Assembly: GCA_965243325.1 (NCBI GenBank)
Contig: CBDEUQ010000003.1
Location: forward strand, 2,020,304-2,084,303
Source of the DNA: Alphaproteobacteria bacterium
Lineage (GTDB): Bacteria; Pseudomonadota; Alphaproteobacteria; UBA7887
Length of the DNA: 64,000 nt
Direction: 5' to 3'
Part shown: piece by piece, positions 8,001-47,911 of the stretch
Numbering within the stretch: the first letter of the stretch is position 1
Layout of the letters: each line of letters starts with the position of its first letter
Program-made: the position numbers and the translations under genes
The notes under the pieces: generated by a model
Databases searched by the model: none
What the model saw: the letters and a program-made list of their open reading frames with translations, nothing else
What the model was told of the DNA's origin: nothing

Positions 8001-8538
8001 CCTGCGCGACGCGGGGGATATCGGAGATGTTATTATCCAGAATGACGGCGCGGTTTTGTTGGCCATCCACCAGGCGAAGGAGGTAGCAACGCCGATCACG
8101 GAAATGTTGCGCGAGTTGGATGTCAAGTCGCTCCGCGAAGCCCTCGGGGAACCGGAAAGCGTCGCTGGCTCGGGAGATGTCGTTCCAGTCAGAGAGGATA
8201 TTCGTACTCGCTTCGATGGACTCAGTTCTTCCCCGTTCCGGCGGACGTTCCGAAAACGACTCACTGAGTTGGGTGTCGAACTTGGGTTGCTACGCAGTCA
8301 CTGGCAACGTCGGCTGGATCTTGTCCGAGGTATTCACGTCGGTGAAGATGTAGAGGTGCGATTTCGATTCCGTGGCAAACCCTACCTACAAAAAGCCGAT
8401 GCAGGATTCGATTCCGGTACCGGCATATTCTGGATGAAACAGGGCCTTGACGCTCGCAGACTGTACGAGACTATTGCCAAACAATTGATTTTCGAACCGG
8501 CGGCGAGGCCCATCGACCTCCTTGCGCTAGTGGATTGA
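5002..8538 (+). pseudogene. Segment 1 (about 1,176 codons) of a giant gene. The N-terminal domain resembles a MutL/MORC-like GHKL ATPase. The natural reading frame is interrupted at 8529/8530 by an IS630-family insertion; the present stop at 8536..8538 is IS-derived
   Basis: Track ORF 4882..8538. Likely ATG at 5002 (MDTVNFDHET...). GHKL motif I IAELVQNDLDQGATKTVVSF (compare MutL ELVENSLDAGAT), motif II CEGNGEPV (DxGxG-like), motif III G-rich GVKNHGLKAAF. GC is visibly lower than the flanks. Frame continuity with 9679..10224 and 11513..11701 was verified by hand (see findings). Confidence 0.75.
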
Positions 8539-9609: not shown

Positions 9610-9676
9610 CGCAACCGTCCCATGACAGATCGAACAAGGGAAACAATAAAGGACTCTTCCGTCAAATACAATCCAC
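8530..9676 (-). mobile_element. IS630-family insertion sequence (1,147 bp) in a CTAG target with TA duplication
   Basis: Left junction gcgC-TA|gtggattgattcc; right junction caatccac|TA-Gaacg. Terminal inverted repeats GTGGATTG/CAATCCAC. TA copies at 8528..8529 and 9677..9678. The reconstituted target is CTAG, the classic IS630 target. Confidence 0.8.
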
Positions 9677-9678
9677 TA

Positions 9679-10224
9679 GAACGAGCTATGGAACTGGAGA
9701 TAGCCGATCCAAGTTTCGGACGGCCGGGAGGATCTCAATTGGGTGCTGGTGACGGGGAAACGGCCGCGGAGGACACCACTGGGCAGGGACAGGAAGATGA
9801 AGGGAATGGCCGGCTCGGAGAAGCGGGAAGCGGACACTCTCCGTTTGAACCGGACCCTACGCGCAATAGGCCCAAACCCGGCCCAATCTCTTCCGAATCA
9901 GCTAGACCGCCGGGACGTGCTAAGGAACAGTCCGGTTCATCGGGCTCGGGTGGGGGCGACAGCTTTAGACGCAAACCCGATCTCGAAAAGCAACACATTG
10001 AGGAGCTAAAGCGCAGCCACTATGCCAGCCATTGCCAGATGTGCTTGTGCGAACGTTCGCCTCAAGAGTTAGCTCCAGCTGGCAGCTACATTGAGGCAGA
10101 AGAAGTACGTCAGAGCGTTGTGCATGCGCACCATACCGATTTAGTGTCGGCCGGCGGCGCACGTCACGCCGGCAACATTATTCTACTGTGCAAGTTACAT
10201 CACGACAACTACGGAAGGCAATTC
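9679..10224 (+). pseudogene. Segment 2 of the giant gene: low-complexity G/S/E-rich linker plus the first half of an HNH nuclease motif, cut by the IS256-family insertion
   Basis: In frame with 8527..8529 once the IS630 and one TA are removed (cta|gaa cga gct atg...). Carries ...HYASHCQMCLCERSP...VHAHHTDLVSAGGARHAGNIILLCKLHHDNYGRQF (CxxC...HxHH...GG...N...CxxHH). Confidence 0.7.
10217..10224. repeat. 8-bp target-site duplication (ggcaattc), left copy, IS256-family copy 1
   Basis: The same 8-mer recurs directly after the right IR at 11505..11512. Confidence 0.8.
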
Positions 10225-11504
10225 GGTGACGTAAGAATTTATGTGTCAGGTGGGAAGGGGGTACTCCCTGTGGTGACGACAACCACAAACAGGAGCACCC
10301 CGCATGTCCCAGCAAGCTGCGACGATCATGAGCCTACCCCAGGCCTTTGAGGTGGTGAAGGAGATGCAGGCAGGCGGACTGGACTGGGGCGAGGGCTACC
10401 GCCCGCTCGGCCGCCAGGCGCTGGCCGAGATCATCGAGGGCCGGATGGCCGAGGCGGTGGATCGCTGGCTCGACAACCTCGACGCCGGCGCGATGCGCGA
10501 CCGGCGCAACGGGACCTACCGCCGCTGCCTGCTGAGCGAGCTCGGCGACATCGAGCTCAACGTGCCGCGCACCCGGCACTTCTGCCCGACCGGGGTTGTG
10601 AAGAGCTACGCAAGGCGCGCGCCGGAGATCGACCGTGCCATCCTGGCCGGCTTCGTGCTGGGGCTTTCGACGCGCAAGGTGGGCGAGGTCCTGCTGGCCC
10701 TGCTCGGGCGCCCGGTCTCGGCCGCGACGGTGAGCCGGGTCTCCAAGACGCTCGACATGGCGGTCGAGGCCTTCCACCGCAGGCCGCTGAAGAACGCCTA
10801 CAAGGCGCTGATGCTCGACGGCGTGGTGCTGGCCCGCAAGACCGGCGCCGGCGCGCTCAGGAGGCCGGTCCTGGTGGCGCTCGGCATCCGCCCCGACGGC
10901 AAGAAGGAGATCATCGACTTCCATCTCGCCGTCAGCGAAGGCGCCCGCGAGTGGGAAGTGTTCCTCAACCGGCTGTACCACCGCGGGCTCACCGGCGAAG
11001 GCCTTGAGATGATCTGCGTCGATGGCGGCAAGGGCCTGCTGGCTGCCTTGCCGTTCGTCTATCCCGGCATCCCGGTTCAGAGGTGCTGGGCGCACAAGAT
11101 GCGCAACATCCTCAACAAGGTCCGCAAGGCCGACCAGGAGGCCGTCAAGGCCGATGTCCACGCCGTCATGAATGCAAAGAGCCGCCGCAAGGCCCAGAGC
11201 GCCGCCCGACGCTTCGCCGACCGCTGGCAAAGCACCTACCCCAAGGCCGTCGCCTGCCTGCGCAGCGATCTCGACGAGCTGCTCACCTGCTTCCGCTACC
11301 GGACCCTCGATGAGCGAAAGCGGGTCAGGACCACCAACGCCATCGAACGAAGGTTCCGGGAGGTCCGCAGACGAACCCGGCCCATGGGAACCTTCCAGGA
11401 CCGGACCTCAATGGACCGCGTCCTCTACGCGGTATTCATCCACGAAAACAAGTCTCAGGGAATCAGCACCCCCGTCTCCCTGACACATAACTCTTGACGT
11501 TACC
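10225..11504 (+). mobile_element. IS256-family insertion sequence, copy 1 (1,280 bp)
   Basis: Imperfect terminal IRs ggtgacgtaagaatttatgtgtca and tgacacataactcttgacgttacc (rc ggtaacgtcaagagttatgtgtca). Flanked by an 8-bp TSD. Identical over its full length to 37223..38502. Confidence 0.85.
10304..11497 (+). CDS. IS256-family (Mutator-type) transposase
   Basis: 397 aa with family hallmarks ...RNGTYRR...LNVPRTRHF... and ...QRCWAHKMRN.... Identical to 37302..38495. Confidence 0.9.
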   Translation: MSQQAATIMSLPQAFEVVKEMQAGGLDWGEGYRPLGRQALAEIIEGRMAEAVDRWLDNLDAGAMRDRRNGTYRRCLLSELGDIELNVPRTRHFCPTGVVKSYARRAPEIDRAILAGFVLGLSTRKVGEVLLALLGRPVSAATVSRVSKTLDMAVEAFHRRPLKNAYKALMLDGVVLARKTGAGALRRPVLVALGIRPDGKKEIIDFHLAVSEGAREWEVFLNRLYHRGLTGEGLEMICVDGGKGLLAALPFVYPGIPVQRCWAHKMRNILNKVRKADQEAVKADVHAVMNAKSRRKAQSAARRFADRWQSTYPKAVACLRSDLDELLTCFRYRTLDERKRVRTTNAIERRFREVRRRTRPMGTFQDRTSMDRVLYAVFIHENKSQGISTPVSLTHNS

Positions 11505-11512
11505 GGCAATTC
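11505..11512. repeat. 8-bp target-site duplication (ggcaattc), right copy, IS256-family copy 1
   Basis: Perfect match to 10217..10224. Confidence 0.8.
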
Positions 11513-11701
11513 AGCCGTGCCGGAATAAGTGCGGCTCTTCGGGACAAACCGAAGAGAATGTCGGTCTGCTACGACGGGGATTTGCACGTTAGTGGCCGGC
11601 AAATTAAACTTGAGGTGTCGGGCACGGGAGAGGTCGTGAGACTCTTCTTTACCGAGCACCACATCGCATACTGGTTGTCGCAGGAGTCAGCGTCAAATTG
11701 A
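11513..11701 (+). pseudogene. Segment 3 (62 codons plus stop) of the giant GHKL-HNH gene, downstream of the IS256-family insertion
   Basis: Continues the frame ...GRQF|SRAGISAALRDKPKRMSVCYDGDLHVSGRQIKLEVSGTGEVVRLFFTEHHIAYWLSQESASN* when one TSD copy is removed. Stop at 11699..11701. Confidence 0.6.
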
Positions 11702-12207
11702 AATGCGAAGTTTTGCGATCTTACTTTTCCGCGGAACGGCGTGTTGATTGGTTAATTTCGGGAGCGCGAACTCTCGCGCGCGGCGCCGTTGGAGCGTCAC
11801 CCTTTGAGATTTTCTGTGCCTTGGTTGGGGGTTGAAGGGTCTCGTTTTTTTTGCAGTTCGCCGCGGCGGTCAGGGTTTCGGGGCAGCGAGGCGCCCGGCC
11901 AGCATTCGGATCTCCAGCGTCTCGGTTACCGCTAGCTTGGACAAATGGTCGCGGCGTAGCGCGTAGCGGTCGTCGGCATCGTTCCGCGGATCCGGCTTCG
12001 CCGGCCCGAGGACAGGCTCCCGTGCGCGTGATCGAGAACATGCGGAAGTGCAGCGTCGTTGGGAGCGTATGCACCAACTGCTCCGGCTCGCGCCATTCCC
12101 CGATGCATCCCGCAGGCGCTTTGGCCGGGCCGAGCCGGCCATCCGCGTCCCGCAGGGGCACCATTCCGCCGTTCGACGAAATCAGACCGCCCGGAAAATC
12201 GGCGCTC

Positions 12208-12378
12208 ATGCTCTTGCGTTTGACGGCTGGCAGATCGAACGGCAGACGAGTACTTCCGTAATGGCGGGCGTGGCGCTCTCGTTGCCGGGGCAGAAGGTCG
12301 CTGGACAACGATTTTCGACCTCATGACAACGACTTACGCCACGTTTACCGTTACCTTGACCGACCGTGGCGTATAAGG
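12208..12378. repeat. Copy B of the ~175-bp direct repeat (partner of 3282..3466)
   Basis: See copy A. Contains an 11-bp inverted repeat cttacgccacg...cgtggcgtaTaag. Confidence 0.5.
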
Positions 12379-12558
12379 CGGGCGAACATTCGTTGACCCT
12401 TAAACTTTACGAGAAAGTCGCCGGAGACCTCATTTCACGGTCTGTGCCGTCTGCGAATTTCCGCAATGGAAATACTAGCCGCCGGAGGCCGGGGATTCCT
12501 CCAACGAAAAGGATTCGAACCCGGCCGGGAGGAAAGTGGCGGCGGGTCTCTTCGGTGT

Positions 12559-34246: not shown

Positions 34247-34966
34247 ATGGAGCCTGAGCCGCACGTCCTCGTCGTCGACGACCACCGGGACATCCGCGAG
34301 CCGCTGGCCCGCTACCTGGAGCGTCACGGCCTGCGCGCTTCGGTCGCCGACGGGGCGCGGGCCGCGCGCCGCGTTCTCGAGCAGGCGGCCGTGGATCTCG
34401 TCGTGCTCGACGTCATGATGCCGGGCGAGGACGGTCTGGCGCTGTGCCGGCACCTGCGCGAGACCACGCGGATTCCCGTCATCCTGCTGACGGCAATGGC
34501 CGAGGACACCGACCGGATCGTCGGCCTCGAGATGGGCGCCGACGACTATGTGACCAAGCCGTTCAACCCGCGCGAGCTGCTGGCCCGCGTCAAGGCGGTG
34601 ATCCGGCGCGCGCGCAGCCTGCCGCCCGACCGCGAGCCGAAGGCCGAGGGGCGGATCGCCTTTGATCGCTGGACGCTGGACGCGGACCGTCGCGAGCTTA
34701 CCGACGAGGGCGGAGTCGTCATACCGTTGTCCACCGGCGAGTTCCGGCTGCTCATGGCCCTGGTCGAGCGCCCGGGAATGGTGCTGTCGCGCGACCGGCT
34801 GCTGGACCTCACGCGCGGCCGCCGTGCGATGCCGTTCGACCGCGCGGTCGACAACCAGGTGAGCCGGCTCAGGCGCAAGATCGAACGCGATCCGGCGAGG
34901 CCGGAACTGATCGTCACCGTGTGGGGCGGCGGCTACCGCTTCGCCGGCAAGGTCGAGCGCGCATGA
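34247..34966 (+). CDS. OmpR-family two-component response regulator
   Basis: Track ORF 34196..34966. Probable start MEPEPHVLVVDDH at 34247. Receiver residues DD...D...K. C-terminal winged helix ...RLLDLTRGRRAMPFDRAVDNQVSRLRRKIE.... Confidence 0.85.
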   Translation: MEPEPHVLVVDDHRDIREPLARYLERHGLRASVADGARAARRVLEQAAVDLVVLDVMMPGEDGLALCRHLRETTRIPVILLTAMAEDTDRIVGLEMGADDYVTKPFNPRELLARVKAVIRRARSLPPDREPKAEGRIAFDRWTLDADRRELTDEGGVVIPLSTGEFRLLMALVERPGMVLSRDRLLDLTRGRRAMPFDRAVDNQVSRLRRKIERDPARPELIVTVWGGGYRFAGKVERA

Positions 34967-36396
34967 GGGCGCTACCGCGGAGCCTCGCCGGCCGGCTCGC
35001 GCTCGTGCTGCTGCTGGCGCTCGTCGCGGCGCAGGGCATCGCCGTGTTCCTGTTCGCCGGCGAACGCGCCGCCGCCGTGCATCACGCCTATCGCGAGAAC
35101 GTCGTCGCGCGGACGGCGACCGTCGTGCGCCTCATCCAGGGCACGCCGCCCGCGCTCCACGACTCCGTTGCCGCCGCGGCGCGAACGCGCTTCGTCCGCT
35201 ATTCGCTGACCCCGGAGCCGGTCGTCGAGCACCTCGGCAGCGGCGAGCGGGCGGAAGCGATCGCCCGCGACCTCGCGCGCGCCCTCGGCGTCGACCGCGG
35301 CCGGGTGCGCATCGCCCCCCTGTGGCGGCCGCATCGACACGGCGAGCACGATGACGATGACGATCACGATGACGACGATCACGATGACGAGCATGACGAC
35401 GACGATGACGACGATCACGAGCGGCCGCGGTGGAAGCGGCACTGGTTCGCCGTTTCCATCGCCATGCCCGACGACGGCTGGCTCAACGTCCAGGTGGGAC
35501 CGCCGCCCGGCGCCCGGCCATTCGGATGGACGTTTCTGCTCTCCTTCGCCCTGTCGGCGCTGGCGGTCGGCGGCGTCGCGGTGTGGGCGGCGCGGCGCCT
35601 GACGCGGCCGATGCGCCGTCTTGCCGATGCCGCCGATGCGCTCGGGCGGGGCGAGGATGTCGGCGACCTGCCGGAGGCGGGGCCGCTCGAGACGCGCCGG
35701 ACCGTCCGCGCCTTCAACCGGATGCGTGACCGCATCGACCGTTTCGTCCGCGACCGCACGACGATGCTCGCGGCCATCTCGCACGATCTCCGGACGCCGA
35801 TCGCGGGCCTGCGTCTCCAGGCCGAGTTCGTCGCCGATGAGGAGGTGCGCAAGAGGATCGCGTCCGGCCTCGACGAGATGCAACGGATGACCGAAGAGAC
35901 GCTGGCATTCGCCCGCGAGGACATGACCCGCGAGGAGACGCGGACGGTGGACCTTCGCGCGCTCGTGGACAGCGTGGCGGCGGACCTCGCGGACCTCGGG
36001 CACGACGTATCGCTGGCCGACGGTGGGCGCGTGCTGGTGCGCTGCCGGCCGGCGGCCCTGCGCCGCGCCGTGGCGAACCTGCTCGAGAACGCCGCCGTCT
36101 ACGGCAGGCGCGGCCGCGCCCGCATCGACCGGCCGGAAGGCGACGTCCGCGTCGCGGTCGACGACGAGGGGCCGGGGATCGCCGATGCCGACCTCGAGCG
36201 GGTTTTCGAGCCCTTCGTCAGGCTCGAGGGGTCGCGCAGCCGCGAGACCGGCGGCAGCGGGCTCGGCCTCGCCATCGCCCGCACCGTCGTCCGCGGCCAC
36301 GGCGGCGACGTGCGGCTGGAGAACCGCAAGGAAGGCGGCCTGCGCGCGACCCTCACGCTGCCGCGCGCCGCGGTCGTCGAGGGCGGAGCGGCGTAG
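34963..36396 (+). CDS. Sensor histidine kinase. The periplasmic domain contains a His/Asp-rich tract
   Basis: ATGA overlap with the response-regulator stop. Two TM segments flank a periplasmic domain containing HRHGEHDDDDDHDDDDHDDEHDDDDDDDHERPR. HAMP. H-box ...AAISHDLRTPIAGL.... HATPase motifs ...LLENAAVYG..., DDEGPGI, GGSGLGLAIA. Confidence 0.85.
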   Translation: MRALPRSLAGRLALVLLLALVAAQGIAVFLFAGERAAAVHHAYRENVVARTATVVRLIQGTPPALHDSVAAAARTRFVRYSLTPEPVVEHLGSGERAEAIARDLARALGVDRGRVRIAPLWRPHRHGEHDDDDDHDDDDHDDEHDDDDDDDHERPRWKRHWFAVSIAMPDDGWLNVQVGPPPGARPFGWTFLLSFALSALAVGGVAVWAARRLTRPMRRLADAADALGRGEDVGDLPEAGPLETRRTVRAFNRMRDRIDRFVRDRTTMLAAISHDLRTPIAGLRLQAEFVADEEVRKRIASGLDEMQRMTEETLAFAREDMTREETRTVDLRALVDSVAADLADLGHDVSLADGGRVLVRCRPAALRRAVANLLENAAVYGRRGRARIDRPEGDVRVAVDDEGPGIADADLERVFEPFVRLEGSRSRETGGSGLGLAIARTVVRGHGGDVRLENRKEGGLRATLTLPRAAVVEGGAA

Positions 36397-36399
36397 GCC

Positions 36400-36546
36400 A
36401 TGCGATGTCCCGGCCCGTACTTCCATCCGCTGCAGGGTGACGGGGCAGGCCGCTACGCCGTACGCTTGACCGCCAACTACCGGGTCACGTTCGGATCGGG
36501 CGATGACGGCGCGGCAGACGTGGACATGGAGGACTATTGTCGATGA
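36400..36546 (+). pseudogene. higB: N-terminally truncated higB (RelE/ParE-superfamily toxin) remnant encoding only the C-terminal ~48 aa
   Basis: MRCPGPYFHPLQGDGAGRYAVRLTANYRVTFGSGDDGAADVDMEDYCR matches the C-terminal half of HigB toxins (...LHPLKGDREGYWSI.VR.NWRI.F.F..GDAY.V.YEDYH). The N-terminal ~45 aa are absent. It begins 4 nt after the kinase stop. ATGA overlap with higA. Confidence 0.6.
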
Positions 36547-36848
36547 TGGAGAGGCATCCTTCCGTGATGCCGGTGCATCCCGGAGAGATCCTGCGTGAGG
36601 ATATTCTGCCCGCGGTTTCGATTACCGGAACGGCGATGGCAGCAGCGCTCGGGATCTCCGAGCAGACCCTTTACGACATCCTTGACGAAAAGCAGCCTGT
36701 GACGGCCGAGATGGCCGTGCGGTTCGGCAAGCTGTTCGGCAATGGCGCCCGCTTCTGGGCGACTCTCCAATGCCGCTACGATCTGGCAATTGCGGAACGC
36801 TCCGTGGAGGTCTCGAATATCCCGACCCTCGAAGCGAGGGCGAGTTGA
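36543..36848 (+). CDS. higA: HigA-family antitoxin (XRE-type HTH)
   Basis: MMERHPSVMPVHPGEILREDILPAVSITGTAMAAALGISEQTLYDILDEKQPVTAEMAVRFGKLFGNGARFWATLQ..., a canonical HigA. Track ORF 36537..36848 uses a TTG 6 nt upstream. Confidence 0.85.
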   Translation: MMERHPSVMPVHPGEILREDILPAVSITGTAMAAALGISEQTLYDILDEKQPVTAEMAVRFGKLFGNGARFWATLQCRYDLAIAERSVEVSNIPTLEARAS

Positions 36849-37214
36849 CGCTCCGAAGGGGATGACGGTGTGTTCGCACCGTCACGGCAAGGAAGGGGTG
36901 GCGACATTCGCGCTCGTCTCTCAGGTGCTCAGTCAGTCGGCATGGACACCCGATGTTCTGGAGGAAAGGCAGCATGATTTGATCGGGCGGCTCAAATCGG
37001 AATGGCGTCTTGGCTAAGCGCCGGGGTGCACTGTCGCCGATCGCTCCCCGATTGGCCTCGTTTGGGCAAGCCCCGGCGGCTCGGCAGGTGGGGAATGTAC
37101 GGAGGAGCCGCCGGCCGTGGAGCCGCTGACTCGAAACGGTGGCAAGCGTCTGCCAGAGGTCGATGCTTTCCTCGTATGATCGTACCCTATGCCAAGCGGA
37201 AACCACACCAGTCA

Positions 37215-37222
37215 AGCCACTC
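37215..37222. repeat. 8-bp target-site duplication (agccactc), left copy, IS256-family copy 2
   Basis: Repeated at 38503..38510, directly after the right IR. Confidence 0.8.
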
Positions 37223-38502
37223 GGTGACGTAAGAATTTATGTGTCAGGTGGGAAGGGGGTACTCCCTGTGGTGACGACAACCACAAACAGGAGCACCCCG
37301 CATGTCCCAGCAAGCTGCGACGATCATGAGCCTACCCCAGGCCTTTGAGGTGGTGAAGGAGATGCAGGCAGGCGGACTGGACTGGGGCGAGGGCTACCGC
37401 CCGCTCGGCCGCCAGGCGCTGGCCGAGATCATCGAGGGCCGGATGGCCGAGGCGGTGGATCGCTGGCTCGACAACCTCGACGCCGGCGCGATGCGCGACC
37501 GGCGCAACGGGACCTACCGCCGCTGCCTGCTGAGCGAGCTCGGCGACATCGAGCTCAACGTGCCGCGCACCCGGCACTTCTGCCCGACCGGGGTTGTGAA
37601 GAGCTACGCAAGGCGCGCGCCGGAGATCGACCGTGCCATCCTGGCCGGCTTCGTGCTGGGGCTTTCGACGCGCAAGGTGGGCGAGGTCCTGCTGGCCCTG
37701 CTCGGGCGCCCGGTCTCGGCCGCGACGGTGAGCCGGGTCTCCAAGACGCTCGACATGGCGGTCGAGGCCTTCCACCGCAGGCCGCTGAAGAACGCCTACA
37801 AGGCGCTGATGCTCGACGGCGTGGTGCTGGCCCGCAAGACCGGCGCCGGCGCGCTCAGGAGGCCGGTCCTGGTGGCGCTCGGCATCCGCCCCGACGGCAA
37901 GAAGGAGATCATCGACTTCCATCTCGCCGTCAGCGAAGGCGCCCGCGAGTGGGAAGTGTTCCTCAACCGGCTGTACCACCGCGGGCTCACCGGCGAAGGC
38001 CTTGAGATGATCTGCGTCGATGGCGGCAAGGGCCTGCTGGCTGCCTTGCCGTTCGTCTATCCCGGCATCCCGGTTCAGAGGTGCTGGGCGCACAAGATGC
38101 GCAACATCCTCAACAAGGTCCGCAAGGCCGACCAGGAGGCCGTCAAGGCCGATGTCCACGCCGTCATGAATGCAAAGAGCCGCCGCAAGGCCCAGAGCGC
38201 CGCCCGACGCTTCGCCGACCGCTGGCAAAGCACCTACCCCAAGGCCGTCGCCTGCCTGCGCAGCGATCTCGACGAGCTGCTCACCTGCTTCCGCTACCGG
38301 ACCCTCGATGAGCGAAAGCGGGTCAGGACCACCAACGCCATCGAACGAAGGTTCCGGGAGGTCCGCAGACGAACCCGGCCCATGGGAACCTTCCAGGACC
38401 GGACCTCAATGGACCGCGTCCTCTACGCGGTATTCATCCACGAAAACAAGTCTCAGGGAATCAGCACCCCCGTCTCCCTGACACATAACTCTTGACGTTA
38501 CC
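37223..38502 (+). mobile_element. IS256-family insertion sequence, copy 2 (identical to 10225..11504)
   Basis: Identity to copy 1 begins at ggtgacgtaag and ends at ...gacgttacc. Its own distinct 8-bp TSD. Same orientation as copy 1, offset exactly 26,998 bp. Confidence 0.85.
37302..38495 (+). CDS. IS256-family transposase (identical to 10304..11497)
   Basis: Identical 397-aa translation in the ORF track. Confidence 0.9.
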   Translation: MSQQAATIMSLPQAFEVVKEMQAGGLDWGEGYRPLGRQALAEIIEGRMAEAVDRWLDNLDAGAMRDRRNGTYRRCLLSELGDIELNVPRTRHFCPTGVVKSYARRAPEIDRAILAGFVLGLSTRKVGEVLLALLGRPVSAATVSRVSKTLDMAVEAFHRRPLKNAYKALMLDGVVLARKTGAGALRRPVLVALGIRPDGKKEIIDFHLAVSEGAREWEVFLNRLYHRGLTGEGLEMICVDGGKGLLAALPFVYPGIPVQRCWAHKMRNILNKVRKADQEAVKADVHAVMNAKSRRKAQSAARRFADRWQSTYPKAVACLRSDLDELLTCFRYRTLDERKRVRTTNAIERRFREVRRRTRPMGTFQDRTSMDRVLYAVFIHENKSQGISTPVSLTHNS

Positions 38503-38510
38503 AGCCACTC
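38503..38510. repeat. 8-bp target-site duplication (agccactc), right copy, IS256-family copy 2
   Basis: Perfect match to 37215..37222. Confidence 0.8.
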
Positions 38511-38550
38511 ACCCTGCCGGCTTGCCGCGACGCTGTCTTGGGGACTCGGC

Positions 38551-39597
38551 ATGACACCTACTCCGGCGACGACGGCTGGACCGCGCCGCGTTCCCGTCGG
38601 CGAACTGAGCCCGATGGTCTCCGGCATCTTCCGCTCGGTCGGCATGTCGGACGAGGACGCGGACCTCATGGCGACCGCCCTGATCGCCTCCGACCTCAGG
38701 GGCGTTCCGTCTCATGGGGTGATCCACGTGCCCGGCTACGTGGGCCGGCTCACCACCGGCGGGGTCGACCCCAAGGGCCGCCCCGCGGTGGAACGCCGGA
38801 AGGGCGGCGCGCTGCGGATCGACGGCGGCAACAGCATGGGCCAGATCGGTAGCGCCTTCGCCATGGAACGGGCCATCGAGCAGGCGCGGGAGGTCGGCGT
38901 CGCCATGGCCACGGTCGGCAACTCCAACCACAGCGGCGCCATGGCCTTCTACGCCATGATGGCGCTGGAACACGACATGATCGGCATCGCGCTGTCCAAT
39001 GCCGTGCCGACCATGGCGCCCTGGGGCGGGCGCGACCGCATCCTCGGCATCAACCCGATCGGGATTGCGATCCCCACCGATGCGGCGGCGCCGTTTGTGC
39101 TCGACGTTTCCTTCAGTGCGGTCTCGCGGAGCAAGATCGTCGTCCACCACCAGGGCGGCATGTCGCTCGAGGACGGCTGGGCGCTCGATGCCGAAGGGCG
39201 GCCGACGCAGGATGCGGCGGCGGCCCTCGAAGGGCTGCTGCTGCCCATCGGTGGCTACAAGGGGACGGGCCTCGCCATCGCCAGCGGGGTCCTGTGCACG
39301 CTGCTGTCGGGGGCGGGCTTCGGCACCGATCTGGGGAGCCTCGAAGCCGGTGCCGTCGCCGGTGCCGACGGCCATGCGCTGCTGGCCGTCGACATCGGCG
39401 CCTTCGAGGACCCGGCCGCGTTCCGGGCCCGCATGACGGCGGTCCTCGACCGCATCAGGAACAGCAACCCGGCGCCCGGGGTCGATCGCATCACCTATCC
39501 CGGCGAAGGGGGCCACGATCGGGCCCGGGCCAACCGCGCCGCCGGCGTCCCCCTCAGCGAGGACACCTGGTCGTCCCTCAAGGCTCTCTGCGACTGA
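38551..39597 (+). CDS. Ldh2-family (malate/L-lactate/L-sulfolactate/ureidoglycolate/ketimine-reductase type) NAD(P)H-dependent dehydrogenase, paralog 1
   Basis: 348 aa. ...DLRGVPSHGVIHVPGYV... and ...TVGNSNHSGAMAFY... are Ldh_2-family signatures. Confidence 0.8.
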   Translation: MTPTPATTAGPRRVPVGELSPMVSGIFRSVGMSDEDADLMATALIASDLRGVPSHGVIHVPGYVGRLTTGGVDPKGRPAVERRKGGALRIDGGNSMGQIGSAFAMERAIEQAREVGVAMATVGNSNHSGAMAFYAMMALEHDMIGIALSNAVPTMAPWGGRDRILGINPIGIAIPTDAAAPFVLDVSFSAVSRSKIVVHHQGGMSLEDGWALDAEGRPTQDAAAALEGLLLPIGGYKGTGLAIASGVLCTLLSGAGFGTDLGSLEAGAVAGADGHALLAVDIGAFEDPAAFRARMTAVLDRIRNSNPAPGVDRITYPGEGGHDRARANRAAGVPLSEDTWSSLKALCD

Positions 39598-39600
39598 ACC

Positions 39601-40674
39601 GTGGCCCGGTATCCAGGATCCGAATCCGAATGCCGAATCGAGGTGGACCGGCTGTCGCGCCTTGTCGCCGACATCTTCGCAGGCTGCGGCATGGCGCCCG
39701 AGGACGCTGCCCTGCTGGCCGACTCCCTGGTCCAGGCGGACCTGCGCGGCATCCATTCCCACGGCGTGCTGCGGGTCCCCGACTACGTGGCCAAGCTCAC
39801 GGCCGAAGGGGTCGACCCCCGCGGCCGGCCGACCGTGGTGAAGGACAACGGCGGTGCCCTCGTGGTCGATGGCGGCAACGCCATGGGCCAGATCGGCGGC
39901 GTCTTCGCCATGGACATGGCCATCGCGCGGGCCCGGGTCCACGGTGTCGCCGCGGTCGCGGTGGGGGGCAGCAACCACGCCGGCACCATGGACTACTACG
40001 TGCGCCGAGCGATCGGCGCGGACATGATCGGCATCGCCACCACCAACGCCCTGCCGACGATGGCGCCGTGGGGCGGGATCGACAAGATCATCGGCCTCAA
40101 CCCTATCGGGATCGGCATCCCCGGCGGCGCCGAGGGGCCGATCGTCCTCGATGTGGCGCTGGGCGCCACCGCCCACGGCAAGATCCGGGTCTACCGCCAG
40201 AAGGGCCTGCCTATACCTGCGGGGTGGGCCTTCGACGTCGAAGGCCAGCCGACCACCGATGCGGAAGTCGCCCTCGACGGCCTGATCCAACCGATCGGCG
40301 CCTTCAAGGGACTGGGCCTCGCCGTCTGCATGGGGGTTCTGTCGTCGCTGCTTTCGGGTGCCGGCTACGGGACCGAGTCGGGCAACATGGTCGACGGCGC
40401 CGCGGCGGGCCGCGACGGTCAATTCTACGTGGCCCTCAACGTCGGGGCATTCGAGGACCTGGATGCTTTCAAGGGACGGGTCGACGGCGTCATCCGCCAG
40501 GTCCGCACATCGCGCCGGGCCGAGGGGGTGGAGCGGCTGTACGCGCCCGGCATGCTCGAGGCCGAGATCGCCGCCCACAACGGCGCCCACGGCATCCCCC
40601 TCAACGAGGAAATCGTCGGCGGCCTGATCGAGGTCGCCGGCCGGTTCGGCGTCGCCCATGGCCTGGGCGCCTGA
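39601..40674 (+). CDS. Ldh2-family dehydrogenase, paralog 2 (tandem duplicate; the proteins share the same motif blocks)
   Basis: GTG start 3 nt after the previous stop. ...DLRGIHSHGVLRVPDYV... and ...VGGSNHAGTMDYY... parallel paralog 1. Confidence 0.8.
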   Translation: MARYPGSESECRIEVDRLSRLVADIFAGCGMAPEDAALLADSLVQADLRGIHSHGVLRVPDYVAKLTAEGVDPRGRPTVVKDNGGALVVDGGNAMGQIGGVFAMDMAIARARVHGVAAVAVGGSNHAGTMDYYVRRAIGADMIGIATTNALPTMAPWGGIDKIIGLNPIGIGIPGGAEGPIVLDVALGATAHGKIRVYRQKGLPIPAGWAFDVEGQPTTDAEVALDGLIQPIGAFKGLGLAVCMGVLSSLLSGAGYGTESGNMVDGAAAGRDGQFYVALNVGAFEDLDAFKGRVDGVIRQVRTSRRAEGVERLYAPGMLEAEIAAHNGAHGIPLNEEIVGGLIEVAGRFGVAHGLGA

Positions 40675-41769
40675 ATGCCGATCCGCCTGACATACGGGGG
40701 GCGCCAGCGGTTCCGCTACCGCCACCACGACATCACGGTGCTCGGCCGGGTTCTGGGCGCCGGCTTTCCCGTCCGCCGGGCGCACTTCGATCTCAACGGC
40801 AGCGGACCGCGGCCCTTCTACGTGGAGCAGGAGCCCGATCCCGGCATCGACTGGACGCAGGGCTACAAGAGCTCCCCGGGAGAGCTGCGATGCCGCGACC
40901 AGGGCGAGTTCTGCATCGAGATCCCCGTCGACGACGACCGGCTGCAGGCCGGCGACAACAGCCTTTCCCTGACGGTGGAGGACGGGGCCGGGACGACCCA
41001 CGCGGCGGCGATGACCTTCGCCTGGTCGGCCGATCCGGTGCCGCTGCCGCTGGACCTGCGCGATCTGTCGTCCTACCGCTCGGTGCAGGAGATCGGGCAG
41101 GCCATCAACGGCGCCTTCGATTTCGATCCGGAGGCCAACCTCATCCGGTCGCGGGGCTCGGTGGCGCCGGATGCCTTCCTCCTTCTGGGCTCGCCCCACG
41201 GCGGCCAGGAGGCGACCTACCGGGTCCGCTTCACCGAGACCGCGGGGGCCAAGTGGCTGGGGCTGTCCGATTTCTTCGCCGGCCTGACCGAGGGCGTGCC
41301 GCCGCGGGGCATAAAGGTCGGCTGGTGCAGCGCCGGCATGGCCGCCCTCAGTCCGACGGACGGCGGCCGCTCCTTCATGGCCTGGGGCGACCATTCCGGT
41401 GATCCCCGGGAATGGGCCGTCGCCACCAATCCGGCCGCGCCCGTCGCGGTGTCGCGGGACACGGCGTACCGGGTCCGCCACCAGATCTGTCGCCATAGCG
41501 GCGTGGGCCGCGTGCGCTACCGCCTGTGGCCGGAGGGCACGGCGGAGCCCGACGACTGGCTCTGCGTGGAGGAGGACAGACGGGTGCCGTCGGACCTGCC
41601 GCGCAACGAACGCGGCGGCTTCGGCCTGTTCCAGCACATGGGCCATCCCATCGAGTGGTCCGATATCCTGGTCACGCCCCATGAGCCCGATCCGCGCGAC
41701 CGGCCCGGCACCGATTCGGCCGCCGCCCGCGAGCCGTTCCTGAAGCGCGACCGTCCGGGCGCGTTCTGA
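40675..41769 (+). CDS. Uncharacterised 364-aa protein, translationally coupled to the Ldh2 pair. No domain recognisable by eye
   Basis: ATG immediately follows the TGA of the upstream gene (tgaATG). Continuous high-GC3 coding frame. No TM segments or signal peptide evident. Confidence 0.6.
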   Translation: MPIRLTYGGRQRFRYRHHDITVLGRVLGAGFPVRRAHFDLNGSGPRPFYVEQEPDPGIDWTQGYKSSPGELRCRDQGEFCIEIPVDDDRLQAGDNSLSLTVEDGAGTTHAAAMTFAWSADPVPLPLDLRDLSSYRSVQEIGQAINGAFDFDPEANLIRSRGSVAPDAFLLLGSPHGGQEATYRVRFTETAGAKWLGLSDFFAGLTEGVPPRGIKVGWCSAGMAALSPTDGGRSFMAWGDHSGDPREWAVATNPAAPVAVSRDTAYRVRHQICRHSGVGRVRYRLWPEGTAEPDDWLCVEEDRRVPSDLPRNERGGFGLFQHMGHPIEWSDILVTPHEPDPRDRPGTDSAAAREPFLKRDRPGAF

Positions 41770-42145
41770 TACGGGGCGGTGACGGACTCGCCCACGTTTC
41801 CTGCCGTCCACCCGCCTCTCCTCGACGACGTCCCGTTGCCGCCGGTGATGCGGGTCGCCCTGCCGCAGCCCAAGGGCGAGCCGGTGGCGGACCTGGAAGG
41901 CGCTATCGCCCGCGCCTCGCCGGCGCGGCCAGGCCCAGGTCCTGGAACGCCTCGGGGTCTCGGACGCGACCATGGGCGGACGGTCCGCGCCACCATGGAG
42001 GCGGTCGAGAGGTGAAGTGAAACGCCTCGACAAGCTGCGCAAGGGCGGCCCGTCCACGCGCTTGAGAACTGCCATTCCTGGGACAGTTTCCGCCGTTGGA
42101 ACTGTGGCGCTGGGCTTTATGCGGTGAGTGAACGAACGGCTTGCC

Positions 42146-43063
42146 TCACCCGAGCCGCTCGCGCTCGGCGCGGACGAGATCGAAGCCGGCGCGCAGGAGG
42201 CGGATGGAGGCTTCGCGGGTCATGAAGCCGGCGTGCGCGGTCAGCGTCACGTTGTCGAGGCGCCGCAGCGGGCTGTCGGCGGCGAGCGGTTCGTCGGCAA
42301 ACACGTCGAGGCCGGCGTGGGCGATGCGGCCGGCGCCGAGCGCGGCGACCAGCGCCTCCTCGTCGATCAGGCCGCCGCGCGCGGTGTTGATCAGGATGGC
42401 GCCCGGCCGCATCAGCGCGAGACGGCGCGAATCGAGGATGCCGGCGGTCTCGTCGGTGAATGCGAGGTGCAGCGAGAGCACGTCGGCGCGGGCGATCACG
42501 TCGTCGAGGGGGCATGCCTCGCAGGGCAGGTCGGGGGCGACGCCACTCCGGTTCCAGGCGATCACCGACATGCCGAGCGCGGCGCCGATGCGCACCGCCT
42601 CGCTGCCGATGCCGCCGGTGCCGACGACGCCGAGGGTCCGCCCCGCGAACTCGATGCTGTCCCGCGTCTCCCAGCCGCCGGCGCGGATCGCGCGGTCCAT
42701 CGCGGCGATCCGGCGGCCCGCGGCGAACATGAGCGCGACCGCGTGCTCGGCCACGCCGCGGTCGCCGTAGCCGCGGATCGTGCGCACGGGGATGCCGCGT
42801 GCCCGTGCCGCGTCGACGTCGATGTAGCTCGCCGCGCCGGTCCCGAGGAACACGATCGCCGCGAGCGCCGGCGCCTCGCCGATCATCGCCGCGTCGACGG
42901 TCGTGTGGTCGACGACGGCGATCCGGCAGTCGGCGAGCAGCGCACGCGCGGCGTTGCGGTCCGGGTCGCCGACTGCGAGCTCGAGACCCGGCGCCAGCGC
43001 CCGCAACTCCTCGTCGACGAGACCGGCGAGGAACGCGGGGCAGTCGATGAAGCGGTCGATCAT
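42146..43063 (-). CDS. D-isomer-specific 2-hydroxyacid dehydrogenase (glycerate/hydroxypyruvate-reductase-like)
   Basis: ATG at 43063 behind a ggagg RBS. 305 aa. NAD-binding ...LGVVGTGGIGSEAVRIGAALGM.... Catalytic region ...LINTARGGLIDEEAL...AGLDVFADEP...LTAHAGF.... Confidence 0.85.
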   Translation of the reverse strand: MIDRFIDCPAFLAGLVDEELRALAPGLELAVGDPDRNAARALLADCRIAVVDHTTVDAAMIGEAPALAAIVFLGTGAASYIDVDAARARGIPVRTIRGYGDRGVAEHAVALMFAAGRRIAAMDRAIRAGGWETRDSIEFAGRTLGVVGTGGIGSEAVRIGAALGMSVIAWNRSGVAPDLPCEACPLDDVIARADVLSLHLAFTDETAGILDSRRLALMRPGAILINTARGGLIDEEALVAALGAGRIAHAGLDVFADEPLAADSPLRRLDNVTLTAHAGFMTREASIRLLRAGFDLVRAERERLG

Positions 43064-44611: not shown

Positions 44612-45091
44612 CTAAGAACGCGTACTTTTCGACGGGTGACCTGCGGGGCCTCCGGAGAGCCGGCCTTCGACGTCGACGAGGACGAGGCGGGCAGGGGGTT
44701 CGGCGCCCCATAGCCACATCACGAGGTTGAGATCGTCAGGGCCGCTGCCTGCGGCGAAGCTCCGAACCCGCATGCCCACTTGGCCCGCGTCGATCAGGCG
44801 GTCGGCCAGAGCCTGCGATGCCGGGACGGCGCCGGCGAGCATCTCGGCTTCCCAGGCGGGGCACGCAAGGTTGAATTCGTTTACGCCGAGAGTCCGGCGG
44901 CGTTCTTCGTCATACGCGTCGAACACGGGCTCGGCGTCGACCTCGTAAGCGCAGAGCGTCAGCGGCTGCAACGGCCGGCCCAGCGGTTGCGCTTCGCGAA
45001 CGGCGGTGAGCGGAGTGAGCGCGGTGTACAGCGCCGGAATGCCGCGCCGATCGAAGCGTCCGCCATGGCGGCGTGCGCCCTCTCCCGACAA
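44612..45091 (-). CDS. RES-domain toxin (RES-Xre / MbcT-ParT-like type II TA)
   Basis: 159 aa from a TTG. ...GEGARRHGGRFDRRGIPALYTALTPLTAVRE... is the RES-domain R...E...S core. In-frame TGA upstream at 45127..45125, so nothing can be added N-terminally. Confidence 0.7.
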   Translation of the reverse strand: MSGEGARRHGGRFDRRGIPALYTALTPLTAVREAQPLGRPLQPLTLCAYEVDAEPVFDAYDEERRRTLGVNEFNLACPAWEAEMLAGAVPASQALADRLIDAGQVGMRVRSFAAGSGPDDLNLVMWLWGAEPPARLVLVDVEGRLSGGPAGHPSKSTRS

Positions 45092-45163
45092 CGGAGTCCA
45101 GGACCAATGCGGATTGTGCGCCCGTCAGACCAGTCCTCGGAACCGCATCGGGCGCGCGCGGGC

Positions 45164-45514
45164 TCAGGCGTAGCCTCCGGCCGCGATGCGGTCGAGATAG
45201 GCGTGGACATGGTCGGCCCGGCCTTCGCGTACCAACTGGTCCGGCGTCGCGCCGCCGAAGCCCTGCAACGGCTCGGCGCGGAACCAGGCGTAGGCGGCAA
45301 GCGGAGAACCGGTCGCCGCCTCGACGCGGTTGAGAATCTCCAGCATCTGACGAAGGCGGACCTGGGTCTTCCGCGCCCGGACGCGCGACGCGCGCGCGAA
45401 CGCATCCTTCCCGAGACCCAGCGTGGCGGCGATCTCGGACTTCGTGGTGCGGAGCGCGTCGGCCACAAGGGTTGGCGAGAACACCTGATCTTCGACGAAT
45501 TCCTGAAAGCGCAC
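45164..45514 (-). CDS. Xre-family / DUF2384 antitoxin partner of the RES toxin
   Basis: 116 aa. The C-terminal ...AYAWFRAEPLQGFGGATPDQLVREGRADHVHAYLDRIAAGGYA is typical of RES-associated DUF2384 antitoxins. Lies upstream of the RES gene on the same strand. Confidence 0.7.
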   Translation of the reverse strand: MRFQEFVEDQVFSPTLVADALRTTKSEIAATLGLGKDAFARASRVRARKTQVRLRQMLEILNRVEAATGSPLAAYAWFRAEPLQGFGGATPDQLVREGRADHVHAYLDRIAAGGYA

Positions 45515-45646: not shown

Positions 45647-47911
45647 TCACCCGCGCGGAACGAGCCGAAGCACGTGCCGCGTCGCCGCGGCGACGGCGGC
45701 GGGGGTCATCGGCAGGGTGAGATAGCCGCCCCCGGCCCAGAGGTCGGCCATGTCGGCGTAGTGGGGCGAAAGCGGGTGCCCGGACTGGCCAGCGTGCACG
45801 ATAGCCTTCATGCCGTCGGCGTCGGCGAGATCGACGATGATGCGCACGCTCGCGCCGTGGATCTCGGCGAACGGCGCATGCGCGTCGTCGATGCGCGTGT
45901 TGGCCTGCATCACCGTATAGGGACCGCCGCCGTGCGGCCGCTCGATCGCGAACAGGTCCCGGACCACCGGTATGGCGTCGGTCAGCGCATGCCGGCTCAC
46001 GGCCTTGTGGGCGTCGCCCCAGCGCCACGCGCCGGGGTCGGGGCCGTAGGCGGCGGAGAGCCACGCGAGCGCCTCGTCGAGAGCGCGGGCGATCGCGGCA
46101 TCGCATCCGTCCGCGCCGCACCACGACGGATCCTCGCCGAGCACGCGGCGGACCATCGCCGGCCGCCGGCCGCGGTAACGGTCGCGGAACGCCGGCAGGT
46201 TGCGCGCGATCAACCCCTGCGCCAGCGCCCGGTACCACGCGTGGAAGATCAGCGGCTCCGAGCGGTCGGCGGCCATGCGGCCGTCCCACGCCGCGAGCCG
46301 CGCGTGATGGGGCGAGTCGGCGACCGCGGGCAGCATGAGCGGCAGAAACTCAAGCGCCATCAGCGAGATTTCGTCGGTTTGCAGCGCCGCGAAGTCGGCC
46401 ACGCCGTGCCGTTCGCGCACGGCGAGCTGCCCGGCAATGCGCCGCGCGCGGTAGTTTTCGGCCCAGTCGCGCCCGATGAAGGGTTCGTATCCCGGCGGCC
46501 GGATGTCCTGGTTGGCGGTGAAGATGGCGCCGCCCGGCGGGTTGTAGAGCCGGGGCAGGGCGTCGTAGGAAAGGCGGCCGATCCACTCGCCGTTGCCGTC
46601 GGCGGCCACGGTCGGCAGCCAGCCGTCGTCATCGCGGCGCACCGGCACCCGCCCGGCGGCGACGAAGCCGATGTTGCCCGCGGCGTCGGCGAGGACGAAG
46701 TTCTGCATCGGCGCGCTGAAGCGTTCCAGCGCTTCGAACAGCGCCTCGACCGAGCCGGCCCGCGCGAGGCGGAACCCGGCGTCGACGGTGGCGTCGTCCG
46801 CTTCGAGCGCCGTCCATGACAGGGCGAGCAAGCGCTCGCCCGCGAAGCGGGCGAGGTCCGAGACGACCGGGCCGAACGGCGTGGTGCGGATGTCGTGCGC
46901 CACCGGATCGCGGCCGCGGACGGCGATCCTCTCGCGGCTCCGGCCGGTGACGTCCGCCTCGTCGACGACGAACACGTCCTGCACGTCGGGGCCGGTGTTG
47001 GTGACGCCCCAGGCCGCGTCGCGGGTGCGCCCGACGACAATCGCCGGGATGCCGGGGACGGTGGCGCCGGCGACGTCGAACCCGGGGGCGCTGAGGTGCG
47101 CGAGATACCAGGCTGCCGGCGCGGTGAGCGCGAGATGCGGATCGTTGGCGAGAATCGGCGCCCCGGTCTTCGAGCGCGCCGGGCCGACGACCCAGTTGTT
47201 GGAGCCCGTGTCGCGCGGCGCGGGCGCCGGCATCACGGCGCCGGTCTCGCGGTACGCCGCGGCGTCCGGCGGCACGGGCGTGCTGCCGGATCCGGGCCAC
47301 GCGGTGGCGAAGACCGCGGACGAGAGCGCCGTCTTCATCTCCGCCCGCAGCAGCTCCTCCATCGCGTTGCCGGAAAGCCGCAGCGCCATGAGCTTGACCG
47401 CAAGCACCGAATCCGCGGGCGTCCACGGCGCCGGCCGGTGGCCGAGCGCCAGCAGCTCCGGCGGCAGCCATCGCGTCGCGTCGATCGCCGCGGTGACTCC
47501 GGCGGCGTAGGCCTCGAGCAGGCGGCGCCCGTCGGCCGGCACGGCGTCGACGTTGCGGGCCGATACGCGGCCGAAGCCCAAGGTGCGGAAATAGCGGTCG
47601 GAGCCGACGAAACCGGCGCCGAGCACGGAGGCCAGCTCGCCGCGGCCGGCGAGGCGCATGAAGGCGATCTGCGACAGCCGGTCCTGGCCGTGCACGAAGC
47701 CGAGGCCGAACCAGGCGTCCCGCTCGCTCCCGGCGTCGATGTGCGGGACGCCGTACGCGTCGCGGCGGATCGCTATTTCGGCATCGACGCCGGCCACGGC
47801 GAGCTCGCCGCCGAGCGTCGGCAGCGAGGCCCGCAGCGCGATCCACCCAGCGGCCGCGGCTACCGCGACGGCGGCCGCGAGGGCGACCGCAATGCGGCGC
47901 GGCCAGCGCAC
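45647..47911 (-). CDS. Penicillin-acylase-family Ntn hydrolase (penicillin amidase / acyl-homoserine-lactone acylase-like)
   Basis: 754 aa from a GTG start. Signal peptide. ...GSNNWVV... (Ser nucleophile of the beta subunit, SNxW). Long alpha and beta regions typical of the family. Confidence 0.8.
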   Translation of the reverse strand: MRWPRRIAVALAAAVAVAAAAGWIALRASLPTLGGELAVAGVDAEIAIRRDAYGVPHIDAGSERDAWFGLGFVHGQDRLSQIAFMRLAGRGELASVLGAGFVGSDRYFRTLGFGRVSARNVDAVPADGRRLLEAYAAGVTAAIDATRWLPPELLALGHRPAPWTPADSVLAVKLMALRLSGNAMEELLRAEMKTALSSAVFATAWPGSGSTPVPPDAAAYRETGAVMPAPAPRDTGSNNWVVGPARSKTGAPILANDPHLALTAPAAWYLAHLSAPGFDVAGATVPGIPAIVVGRTRDAAWGVTNTGPDVQDVFVVDEADVTGRSRERIAVRGRDPVAHDIRTTPFGPVVSDLARFAGERLLALSWTALEADDATVDAGFRLARAGSVEALFEALERFSAPMQNFVLADAAGNIGFVAAGRVPVRRDDDGWLPTVAADGNGEWIGRLSYDALPRLYNPPGGAIFTANQDIRPPGYEPFIGRDWAENYRARRIAGQLAVRERHGVADFAALQTDEISLMALEFLPLMLPAVADSPHHARLAAWDGRMAADRSEPLIFHAWYRALAQGLIARNLPAFRDRYRGRRPAMVRRVLGEDPSWCGADGCDAAIARALDEALAWLSAAYGPDPGAWRWGDAHKAVSRHALTDAIPVVRDLFAIERPHGGGPYTVMQANTRIDDAHAPFAEIHGASVRIIVDLADADGMKAIVHAGQSGHPLSPHYADMADLWAGGGYLTLPMTPAAVAAATRHVLRLVPRG

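Follow-up and report, generated by a model that had tools for sequence, protein, structure and literature searches.

In Escherichia coli, the yiaK-yiaMNO module joins an Ldh_2-family 2,3-diketo-L-gulonate reductase to a tripartite ATP-independent periplasmic (TRAP) transporter for the use of acid sugars. Non-phosphorylative aldose and acid-sugar pathways draw on a different set of enzymes: an aldose dehydrogenase, a lactonase, an IlvD/EDD dehydratase and an FAH-family hydrolase. Insertion sequences (ISs) of the IS256 family, among them IS256 of Staphylococcus and ISPaes3 of Paracoccus, carry one Mutator-type DDE transposase (PF00872, NF033543) in ~1.3 kb. Imperfect inverted repeats of ~26 bp form their termini, insertion duplicates 8 bp of the target, and the right end contains a −35-like hexamer. 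IS256 itself is reported to form hybrid promoters in staphylococci. ISPaes3, an alphaproteobacterial member of the family, has been suggested to donate the −35 element of a hybrid promoter (PMC3281130). Here, we describe a locus that resembles each of these systems in part. It lies in a 64,000-nucleotide stretch, hereafter the window (GC content, ~72%), of the genome of an Alphaproteobacteria bacterium (UBA7887; assembly GCA_965243325.1, contig CBDEUQ010000003.1, positions 2,020,304 to 2,084,303). On its sequence, the locus is a same-strand operon of three genes, ldhA-ldhB-x364, encoding two Ldh_2-family dehydrogenases and a 364–amino acid protein that we call X364, with an IS256-family element directly upstream.

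We infer that ldhA-ldhB-x364, which seems to be linked with the nearby genes for a D-2-hydroxyacid dehydrogenase and a PF12831 flavoprotein, most likely serves a cytoplasmic route that interconverts or degrades a 2-oxo or 2-hydroxy carboxylic acid; the compound is probably an acid sugar or derived from one. X364 would then probably bind and transform, as a hydrolase, lyase or isomerase, either the substrate or the product of LdhB. An active IS256-family element inserted recently 48 bp upstream of ldhA and separated the operon from its native upstream region of ~370 bp; transcription may now come most plausibly by read-through from the co-oriented transposase gene. Taken as a whole, we regard this reading as having about an even chance of being right.

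Both dehydrogenases match PF02615 at full length (profile positions 2 to 333), with scores of 369.7 bits for LdhA and 360.5 bits for LdhB against a cut-off of 38.8. They are 52% identical to each other, which agrees with an earlier note on this DNA that described two adjacent paralogues. Their closest solved structures are archaeal L-sulfolactate dehydrogenase (2x06), type-2 malate dehydrogenase (1v9n) and AllD (1xrh), enzymes of the same fold and family that are their best matches in both PDB and NCBIfam. However, LdhA and LdhB fall below the cut-offs of all five Ldh_2 equivalog models in NCBIfam (sulfolactate dehydrogenase, AllD, YiaK and PRK10098 types). Scores of 235 to 248 bits (the best being 248) against a cut-off of 500 (NF040650) indicate that neither protein is an orthologue of sulfolactate dehydrogenase or AllD and that the specificity of those enzymes is not transferable. 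The two proteins also reach only 151 to 161 bits against the YiaK model (cut-off, 316). We therefore leave them unplaced among the named enzymes; from their family membership, both are predicted to be NAD(P)-dependent 2-oxo-acid/2-hydroxy-acid (or imino-acid) oxidoreductases of orphan specificity. A literature search on Ldh_2-linked pathways returned nothing relevant.

The third gene encodes a genuine protein that lies outside the curated families. We found 314 homologues of X364 (clusters at 90% identity) at E ≤1e-3, mostly full length and mostly 357 to 365 amino acids long; the best 120 of the 314, the query's own cluster aside, are 53 to 78% identical to it. Among the homologues listed, none has a Pfam domain, and those with a name are called hypothetical. 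A search without a word index of 1.84 billion representative proteins returned only 88 clusters related to X364, so the family is small. It is also compact: an alignment of 43 sequences contains 84 invariant columns, with a mean column identity of 67%, and the C-terminal residues ...RPGAF are conserved. GC contents at the three codon positions of x364 are 0.71, 0.53 and 0.91. Compared with L001, a metagenome contig from the same species, x364 shows 2 synonymous and 0 nonsynonymous differences and is the best-conserved gene of the locus; the corresponding synonymous:nonsynonymous counts are 6:6 for LdhA and 10:10 for LdhB. The earlier note had allowed that the reading frame might be a spurious product of high GC content. 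We reject this on the strength of the 314 homologues, the GC3 of 0.91 and the lack of nonsynonymous changes, and synteny with LdhB is conserved as well.

The same note could assign X364 to no family, and our searches bear this out. None of 43 family members matched Pfam, even at E values of 5 to 10, and NCBIfam likewise gave no match. Nothing credible was found among PDB sequences by profile or by single sequence (the best E value, 0.55, belongs to an unrelated short stretch), nor in PHROGs or PADLOC. The N-terminus has no signal peptide, and X364 is thus predicted to be cytoplasmic. At every genome locus examined, close relatives of X364 come from alphaproteobacterial metagenome-assembled genomes, bar one bin labelled Chloroflexi. 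This is L002 (VXPS01000155.1), a 4.5-kb contig binned as 'Chloroflexi bacterium' that carries the closest relative in the genome collection (79% identity); it was probably mis-binned, because its Ldh2/X364 genes look alphaproteobacterial.

X364 travels with one of the two dehydrogenases. We compared gene neighbourhoods in 35 genome loci and additional metagenome loci by tblastn mapping and clustering of neighbouring open reading frames (ORFs). LdhB is the paralogue whose orthologues accompany X364: of 33 distinct loci, about 20 have, within the DNA examined, an orthologue that shares 54 to 70% identity with LdhB and is in every case less similar to LdhA. The pair occurs in at least four arrangements, which include divergent, convergent and co-directional orders. 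Ldh2 and X364 are divergently transcribed in L002, L004, L005 and L017, and X364 is followed directly downstream by Ldh2 in L022, L032/L039 and L031/L043. A longer operon places Ldh2 upstream of X364, in the order aldo-keto reductase (AKR), SMP-30 lactonase, a 342-aa protein, Ldh2, Abhydrolase_3 and X364, followed by a GntR gene on the opposite strand (L009, L010, L012, L013/L040, L014, L016 and L023); in some of these loci (L013/L040, L014, L016 and L023), an IlvD/EDD gene, also on the opposite strand, stands between Abhydrolase_3 and X364. In L008/L042, the two genes converge across a GntR gene. The earlier note had proposed an Ldh2-Ldh2-X triad as the unit to look for. Among the loci examined, this triad occurs only in the window's species; the conserved unit is instead the pair of LdhB and X364. 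Judged by gene context, LdhB and X364 are functionally linked.

The other partners of X364 point to acid metabolism of the kinds introduced above. A GntR/FCD regulator is a specific recurrent neighbour (10 loci; median distance, 31 bp). A DctPQM TRAP transporter lies near X364 in L006, L008, L031, L032 and L044, and a DctP gene alone in L019 and L028. Further recurrent partners are an IlvD/EDD dehydratase, an AKR, an SMP-30 lactonase, Abhydrolase_3, an FAH-family protein and ApbA-type reductases. In L039 and L042, the TRAP binding protein encoded beside X364 most closely resembles the TakP group of alpha-keto-acid binders (2hzk, 7ug8, 4yic and 4pet). That of L044 is closest to 4nq8, 4pdh and 4pdd, chains that we take to hold pantoate or erythronate, and also matches SiaP. 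In L039, an LdhA orthologue (66% identity) is found with genes for a GntR regulator, a 2-Hacid_dh protein, a DAO-family oxidase and a RidA-family protein, a few kilobases from DctPQM-X364-LdhB. The cluster in the window looks like a condensed version of this locus, minus its transporter and regulator.

Two likenesses can thus be drawn. The combination of Ldh_2, TRAP transporter and regulator in L039, L042, L043 and L044 follows the logic of yiaK-yiaMNO. The E. coli module lacks any counterpart of X364, and the window lacks a TRAP transporter. The Devosia/Rhodobacteraceae-type loci, with AKR, SMP-30 lactonase, IlvD/EDD, FAH and GntR genes around LdhB and X364, resemble the non-phosphorylative pathways, whereas none of these five genes is present in the window. 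To our knowledge, roles of Ldh_2 enzymes and X364 in a non-phosphorylative acid-sugar route have not been described. A second conserved protein without a Pfam domain, ~342 aa long, lies between the SMP-30 lactonase and Ldh_2 genes (L009:4796-5824; also L010, L012, L014, L016 and L023). It occurs in Devosia/Rhodobacteraceae-type X364 clusters and is absent from some loci, such as L013/L040. We considered whether X364 might be its paralogue and found no sequence similarity between the two. Histidine kinase genes directly adjoin some X364 homologues that lack Ldh_2 (L018, L021 and L030), and the window, too, has one upstream, which may be due to chance or may point to a sensory link.

The predicted fold of X364 gives a second line of evidence on its role. 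AlphaFold2, run with the alignment, modelled the whole protein with high confidence (predicted local distance difference test, pLDDT, 93.2; predicted TM-score, pTM, 0.92). The model is all beta, with an N-terminal Ig-like sandwich (residues ~1 to 125) and a C-terminal jelly roll (~130 to 335). For the whole chain, a Foldseek search of the PDB found no close relative (query-normalised TM-score ≤0.38). The N-terminal domain resembles CopC/Ig-like sandwiches. The C-terminal domain, modelled separately with a pLDDT of 95, matches family 66 carbohydrate-binding modules (CBM66), the thrombospondin/COMP C-terminal domain, ERGIC-53/VIP36 and legume lectins with a Foldseek probability of 1.0 at 8 to 15% identity; target-normalised TM-scores are 0.65 to 0.70 for CBM66 and 0.40 to 0.45 for legume lectins. 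According to the model, the C-terminal domain has the L-type-lectin/ConA-like fold, a likeness at the level of fold only. X364 shares the ConA-like jelly roll of CBM66 and L-type lectins but belongs to none of the corresponding sequence families (Laminin_G_3, DUF1080, GH16, Lectin_legB and others), and it differs from those proteins in its predicted cytoplasmic location, its additional N-terminal Ig-like domain, its conserved C-terminal tail and its place in a metabolic operon. Analogies with PL7 alginate lyase, GH16, allantoicase and mutarotase were considered and set aside, since none appears among the Foldseek matches and the order of motifs does not fit.

What X364 does with this scaffold is a matter of two competing accounts. 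We tentatively propose, at rather less than even confidence, that X364 founds a new enzyme family in which an L-type-lectin/ConA-like scaffold, a non-catalytic sugar binder in the other known members of this fold group, has acquired catalytic residues and performs a hitherto unrecognised step of alphaproteobacterial acid-sugar or 2-oxo-acid catabolism. A dedicated Ldh_2 dehydrogenase would either receive its product or supply its substrate. The candidate catalytic residues are three that are specific to the subfamily, His240, Ser241 and His321, and also Cys297. Cys297 is invariant across the close homologues aligned, and His240 and His321 are invariant in the alphaproteobacterial group.

A serious alternative to this enzymatic step is that X364 binds without catalysing. 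It could be a cytoplasmic lectin-like ligand-binding or accessory protein that, for example, presents substrate to LdhB or regulates it, or acts as a sensor that feeds the adjacent GntR regulators or histidine kinases. The top fold matches (CBM66, L-type lectins and the thrombospondin C-terminal domain) are all non-catalytic, distant relatives occur as modules of multidomain proteins, and the invariant C-terminal tail suggests protein-protein contact. GntR genes are immediately adjacent in 10 loci, and the histidine kinases beside several homologues, as well as one upstream in the window, point the same way. Nevertheless, the protein is very highly conserved, many charged and aromatic residues being invariant along its entire length, and the alphaproteobacterial subfamily has His, Ser and Cys residues of its own that resemble an acquired active or metal site. 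X364 and LdhB do not keep a fixed gene order, as one would expect sooner of partners in a pathway than of members of an obligate complex, and we know of no Ldh_2 enzyme that needs an accessory subunit. On balance, we judge a purely non-enzymatic role somewhat unlikely.

Returning to the proposed role of X364 in acid catabolism, several observations weigh against it. No TRAP transporter or GntR gene was found anywhere in the 64-kb window. About 40% of X364 loci have no Ldh_2 gene nearby; these belong mainly to a Rhodospirillaceae-type subfamily (48 to 53% identity), whose matches end at about residue 334, without the C-terminal tail, and their neighbours are heterogeneous (histidine kinases, a major facilitator superfamily transporter, RF3, NnrU and a P-type ATPase). 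No enzyme ranks high among the Foldseek matches, and the closest structural relatives are all non-catalytic sugar-binding modules. His240 and His321 are not kept in distant homologues (33 to 46% identity). Some of these carry signal peptides (P0124 and P0133); one is fused to a sulfotransferase (P0123), another to InlB repeats and Laminin_G_3 (P0133), and the gene of a third adjoins a polysaccharide flippase (P0122). Such secreted, fused or flippase-adjacent proteins suggest glycan binding rather than small-acid metabolism. The wider superfamily thus looks like a glycan- or ligand-binding module, from which the alphaproteobacterial branch may have been drawn into the metabolism of small molecules, either to catalyse a reaction or to serve as a binding partner. 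The earlier note saw in the locus a possible small catabolic pathway, with X364 as its missing step. The context does fit a small hydroxy-acid or keto-acid catabolic module. X364 might supply a missing step; its fold resembles that of non-catalytic lectins and CBMs.

X364 is of interest as a compact, highly conserved family that the curated databases lack, although its structure is modelled with confidence and its genomic partner recurs reproducibly. Identifying its reaction would give a substrate for one orphan branch of Ldh_2, a poorly resolved family, and for the TakP-like TRAP transporters that accompany it. If our proposal is right, X364 might show a lectin fold recruited for catalysis. 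We see the locus as a clearly delimited candidate for the discovery of a function, not as a surprising system, and nothing about it is exceptional.

The element upstream of the operon is an ordinary IS256-family member. Its transposase exceeds both curated cut-offs (21 bits for PF00872; 150 bits for NF033543, the NCBIfam IS256 equivalog), and its 26-bp inverted repeats, GGTGACGTAAGAATTTATGTGTCAGG on the left and GGTAACGTCAAGAGTTATGTGTCAGG on the right (reverse complement), agree at 21 of 26 positions. On either side of the element stands a copy of the 8-bp target duplication, AGCCACTC, in direct orientation. The earlier note called it copy 2, correctly, as a copy that is 100% identical over 1,280 bp lies elsewhere in the window. 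The two copies have distinct duplications, GGCAATTC and AGCCACTC, and this, together with their identity, marks them as independent recent transpositions. The separate target duplications also lead us to reject a composite transposon made of both. In a plasmid collection, only one match to the IS was found, and it spans 15% of the element.

Empty sites in two conspecific metagenome contigs, L001 (97% nucleotide identity) and L047 (98%), show how the insertion took place. Neither contig has the IS, and their alignment to the window breaks exactly at 37222/38503. The 8-bp target occurs once in each, as AGCCACTC in L047 and AGCCGCTC in L001, and the empty site of L047 reads ...CAAGCCACTCACCCTG... 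These exact empty sites show that the IS deleted nothing, and with the identical second copy they indicate that the insertion is recent. An intergenic region of ~416 bp was split, such that 40 native bases and the duplication remain before the ldhA ATG, and the native ~370-bp upstream region is now 1,288 bp (~1.29 kb) further from the operon. The earlier note held that the IS had probably replaced the native promoter, which is not the case: a clean insertion displaced the whole upstream region and replaced none of it. Copy 1 sits in an IS-rich patch (window positions 8527 to 12305), near an IS630-like DDE_3 transposase (8527 to 9606, minus strand) and a truncated DDE_Tnp_1_4 transposase (11721 to 12305, minus strand). 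A 131-bp repeat, 81% identical, is present at 3342 to 3472 and 12253 to 12383.

The effect of the insertion on transcription is less direct to read. The transposase gene reads in the same direction as the operon and stops 7 bp short of the IS end, and a consensus scan found no terminator-like site on the plus strand between it and ldhA. Read-through is thus the simplest route, and from the sequence it seems a more plausible driver of the operon than a hybrid promoter. Within the operon, the gaps are 3 nucleotides (LdhA/LdhB) and 0 nucleotides (LdhB/X364), and the scan again found no plus-strand terminator. An E. coli–type sigma-70 consensus scan detected no promoter in positions 36800 to 42200 or in the intact L001 intergenic region, a result that is weak evidence at 72% GC because such a scan may miss alphaproteobacterial promoters; this dependence also counts against our account. 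By the same scan, no standard promoter is kept between the IS and the ATG, as the earlier note had expected. Searches of the leader and operon for riboswitches or known RNAs gave only two sub-threshold chance matches.

It is also conceivable that the insertion was a neutral or mildly deleterious polar event that silenced or uncoupled an accessory operon in a variable, mobile element–rich region, with genes that are intact only because it happened very recently. The 100% identity of the IS copies and the lack of the insertion in both sampled conspecific contigs are in keeping with this idea, as are the toxin-antitoxin modules that flank the locus, the further IS elements in the window, the equal synonymous and nonsynonymous counts in LdhA and LdhB, and the lack of a TRAP transporter or GntR gene in the window. 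Against it stand the intact state of all ORFs, the conservation of X364, which is the most conserved gene of the locus, and the possibility of read-through from a co-oriented transposase gene without an intervening terminator. We consider silencing rather doubtful. The earlier note's own proposal, a hybrid promoter that activates the operon with a −35 from the right inverted repeat and a −10 from target DNA, is improbable: an outward TTGACG does lie 5 nucleotides from the IS end and both ISPaes3 and IS256 offer precedents, but the hexamers 16 to 18 nucleotides downstream (CTGCCG, TGCCGG and GCCGGC) match TATAAT at only 0 to 1 of 6 positions, and by this consensus test the insertion lacks the −10 partner of the known IS256-family cases. 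IS-plus and IS-minus members of one species offer a natural comparison for IS256-family expression rewiring in a high-GC alphaproteobacterium.

The IS boundaries, the 48-bp distance to the first ATG, the coordinates of the three ORFs and the tgaATG junction given in the earlier note were all reproduced (Table 1). That note placed both downstream genes on the opposite strand, which is true of the 2-hydroxyacid dehydrogenase gene; the FAD oxidoreductase gene diverges from it on the plus strand.

Table 1. Features of the ldhA-ldhB-x364 locus, in window coordinates.
Feature	Position	Strand	Evidence or remarks
Native upstream intergenic region	36849..37214	+	GC lower, 0.61-0.65; joined to operon leader in L001 and L047
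Left target-site duplication copy	37215..37222	.	8 bp, AGCCACTC
IS256-family element, copy 2	37223..38502	+	1,280 bp; left inverted repeat (IRL) 37223-37248, right inverted repeat (IRR) 38477-38502
Transposase, 397 aa	37302..38495	+	PF00872 255.7 bits; NF033543 298.5 bits
TTGACG, −35-like hexamer inside IRR, facing outward	38492..38497	+	Sequence reading
Right target-site duplication copy	38503..38510	.	AGCCACTC
Residual native leader, 40 bp, with GGGGA Shine-Dalgarno-like motif	38511..38550	+	Sequence
LdhA, Ldh_2-family oxidoreductase, 348 aa	38551..39597	+	PF02615 1.7e-110
LdhB, Ldh_2-family oxidoreductase, 357 aa, GTG start	39601..40674	+	PF02615 1.1e-107
X364, 364 aa, ATG abutting LdhB TGA	40675..41769	+	Homologues, alignment, fold model
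376-bp spacer, convergent X364 / 2-Hacid_dh	41770..42145	.	Contains 78-aa ORF (41779-42015)
D-isomer-specific 2-hydroxyacid dehydrogenase, 305 aa	42146..43063	-	PF02826, PF00389; gene call in L001
PF12831 FAD-dependent oxidoreductase, 485 aa	43137..44594	+	PF12831 2e-76; gene calls in L001 and L047
IS256-family element, copy 1	10225..11504	+	blastn 1280/1280 identical to copy 2; duplication GGCAATTC

The spacer downstream of x364 is unusually long for the convergent X364 and 2-Hacid_dh genes. It contains no consensus terminator, and its 78-aa ORF has no family match; a remnant LarA-like pseudogene, which we had considered, was rejected for the same lack of a match. The 2-Hacid_dh and FAD oxidoreductase genes form a pair that is conserved in the conspecific contigs. 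In other lineages, the oxidoreductase gene was not detected near X364, and 2-Hacid_dh was found only in L032/L039. The oxidoreductase matches no NCBIfam equivalog and is functionally orphan too.

Upstream of the operon, a histidine kinase with HAMP, HisKA and HATPase domains (34921 to 36396, plus strand) has a His/Asp run, HGEHDDDDDHDDDDHDDEHDDDDDDDHE, at about residues 140 to 168, apparently in a periplasmic loop. In L047, the response-regulator/kinase pair is preceded by genes for an EF-hand protein and cobW. The pair may be a metal-sensing two-component system. A HigA-like helix-turn-helix gene (36537 to 36848, plus strand), preceded by a 48-aa stub, lies between the kinase and the operon, and a RES toxin (PF08808) with an Xre/MbcA/ParS antitoxin (PF09722) is encoded downstream (44612 to 45514, minus strand). 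Toxin-antitoxin–like modules thus bracket the operon on both sides. We rejected a defence-island reading of these modules, as none of five genes matched PADLOC. Immediately beyond the RES/Xre module is a gene for a penicillin amidase family protein (PF01804, 3.8e-196; 45647 to 47911, minus strand).

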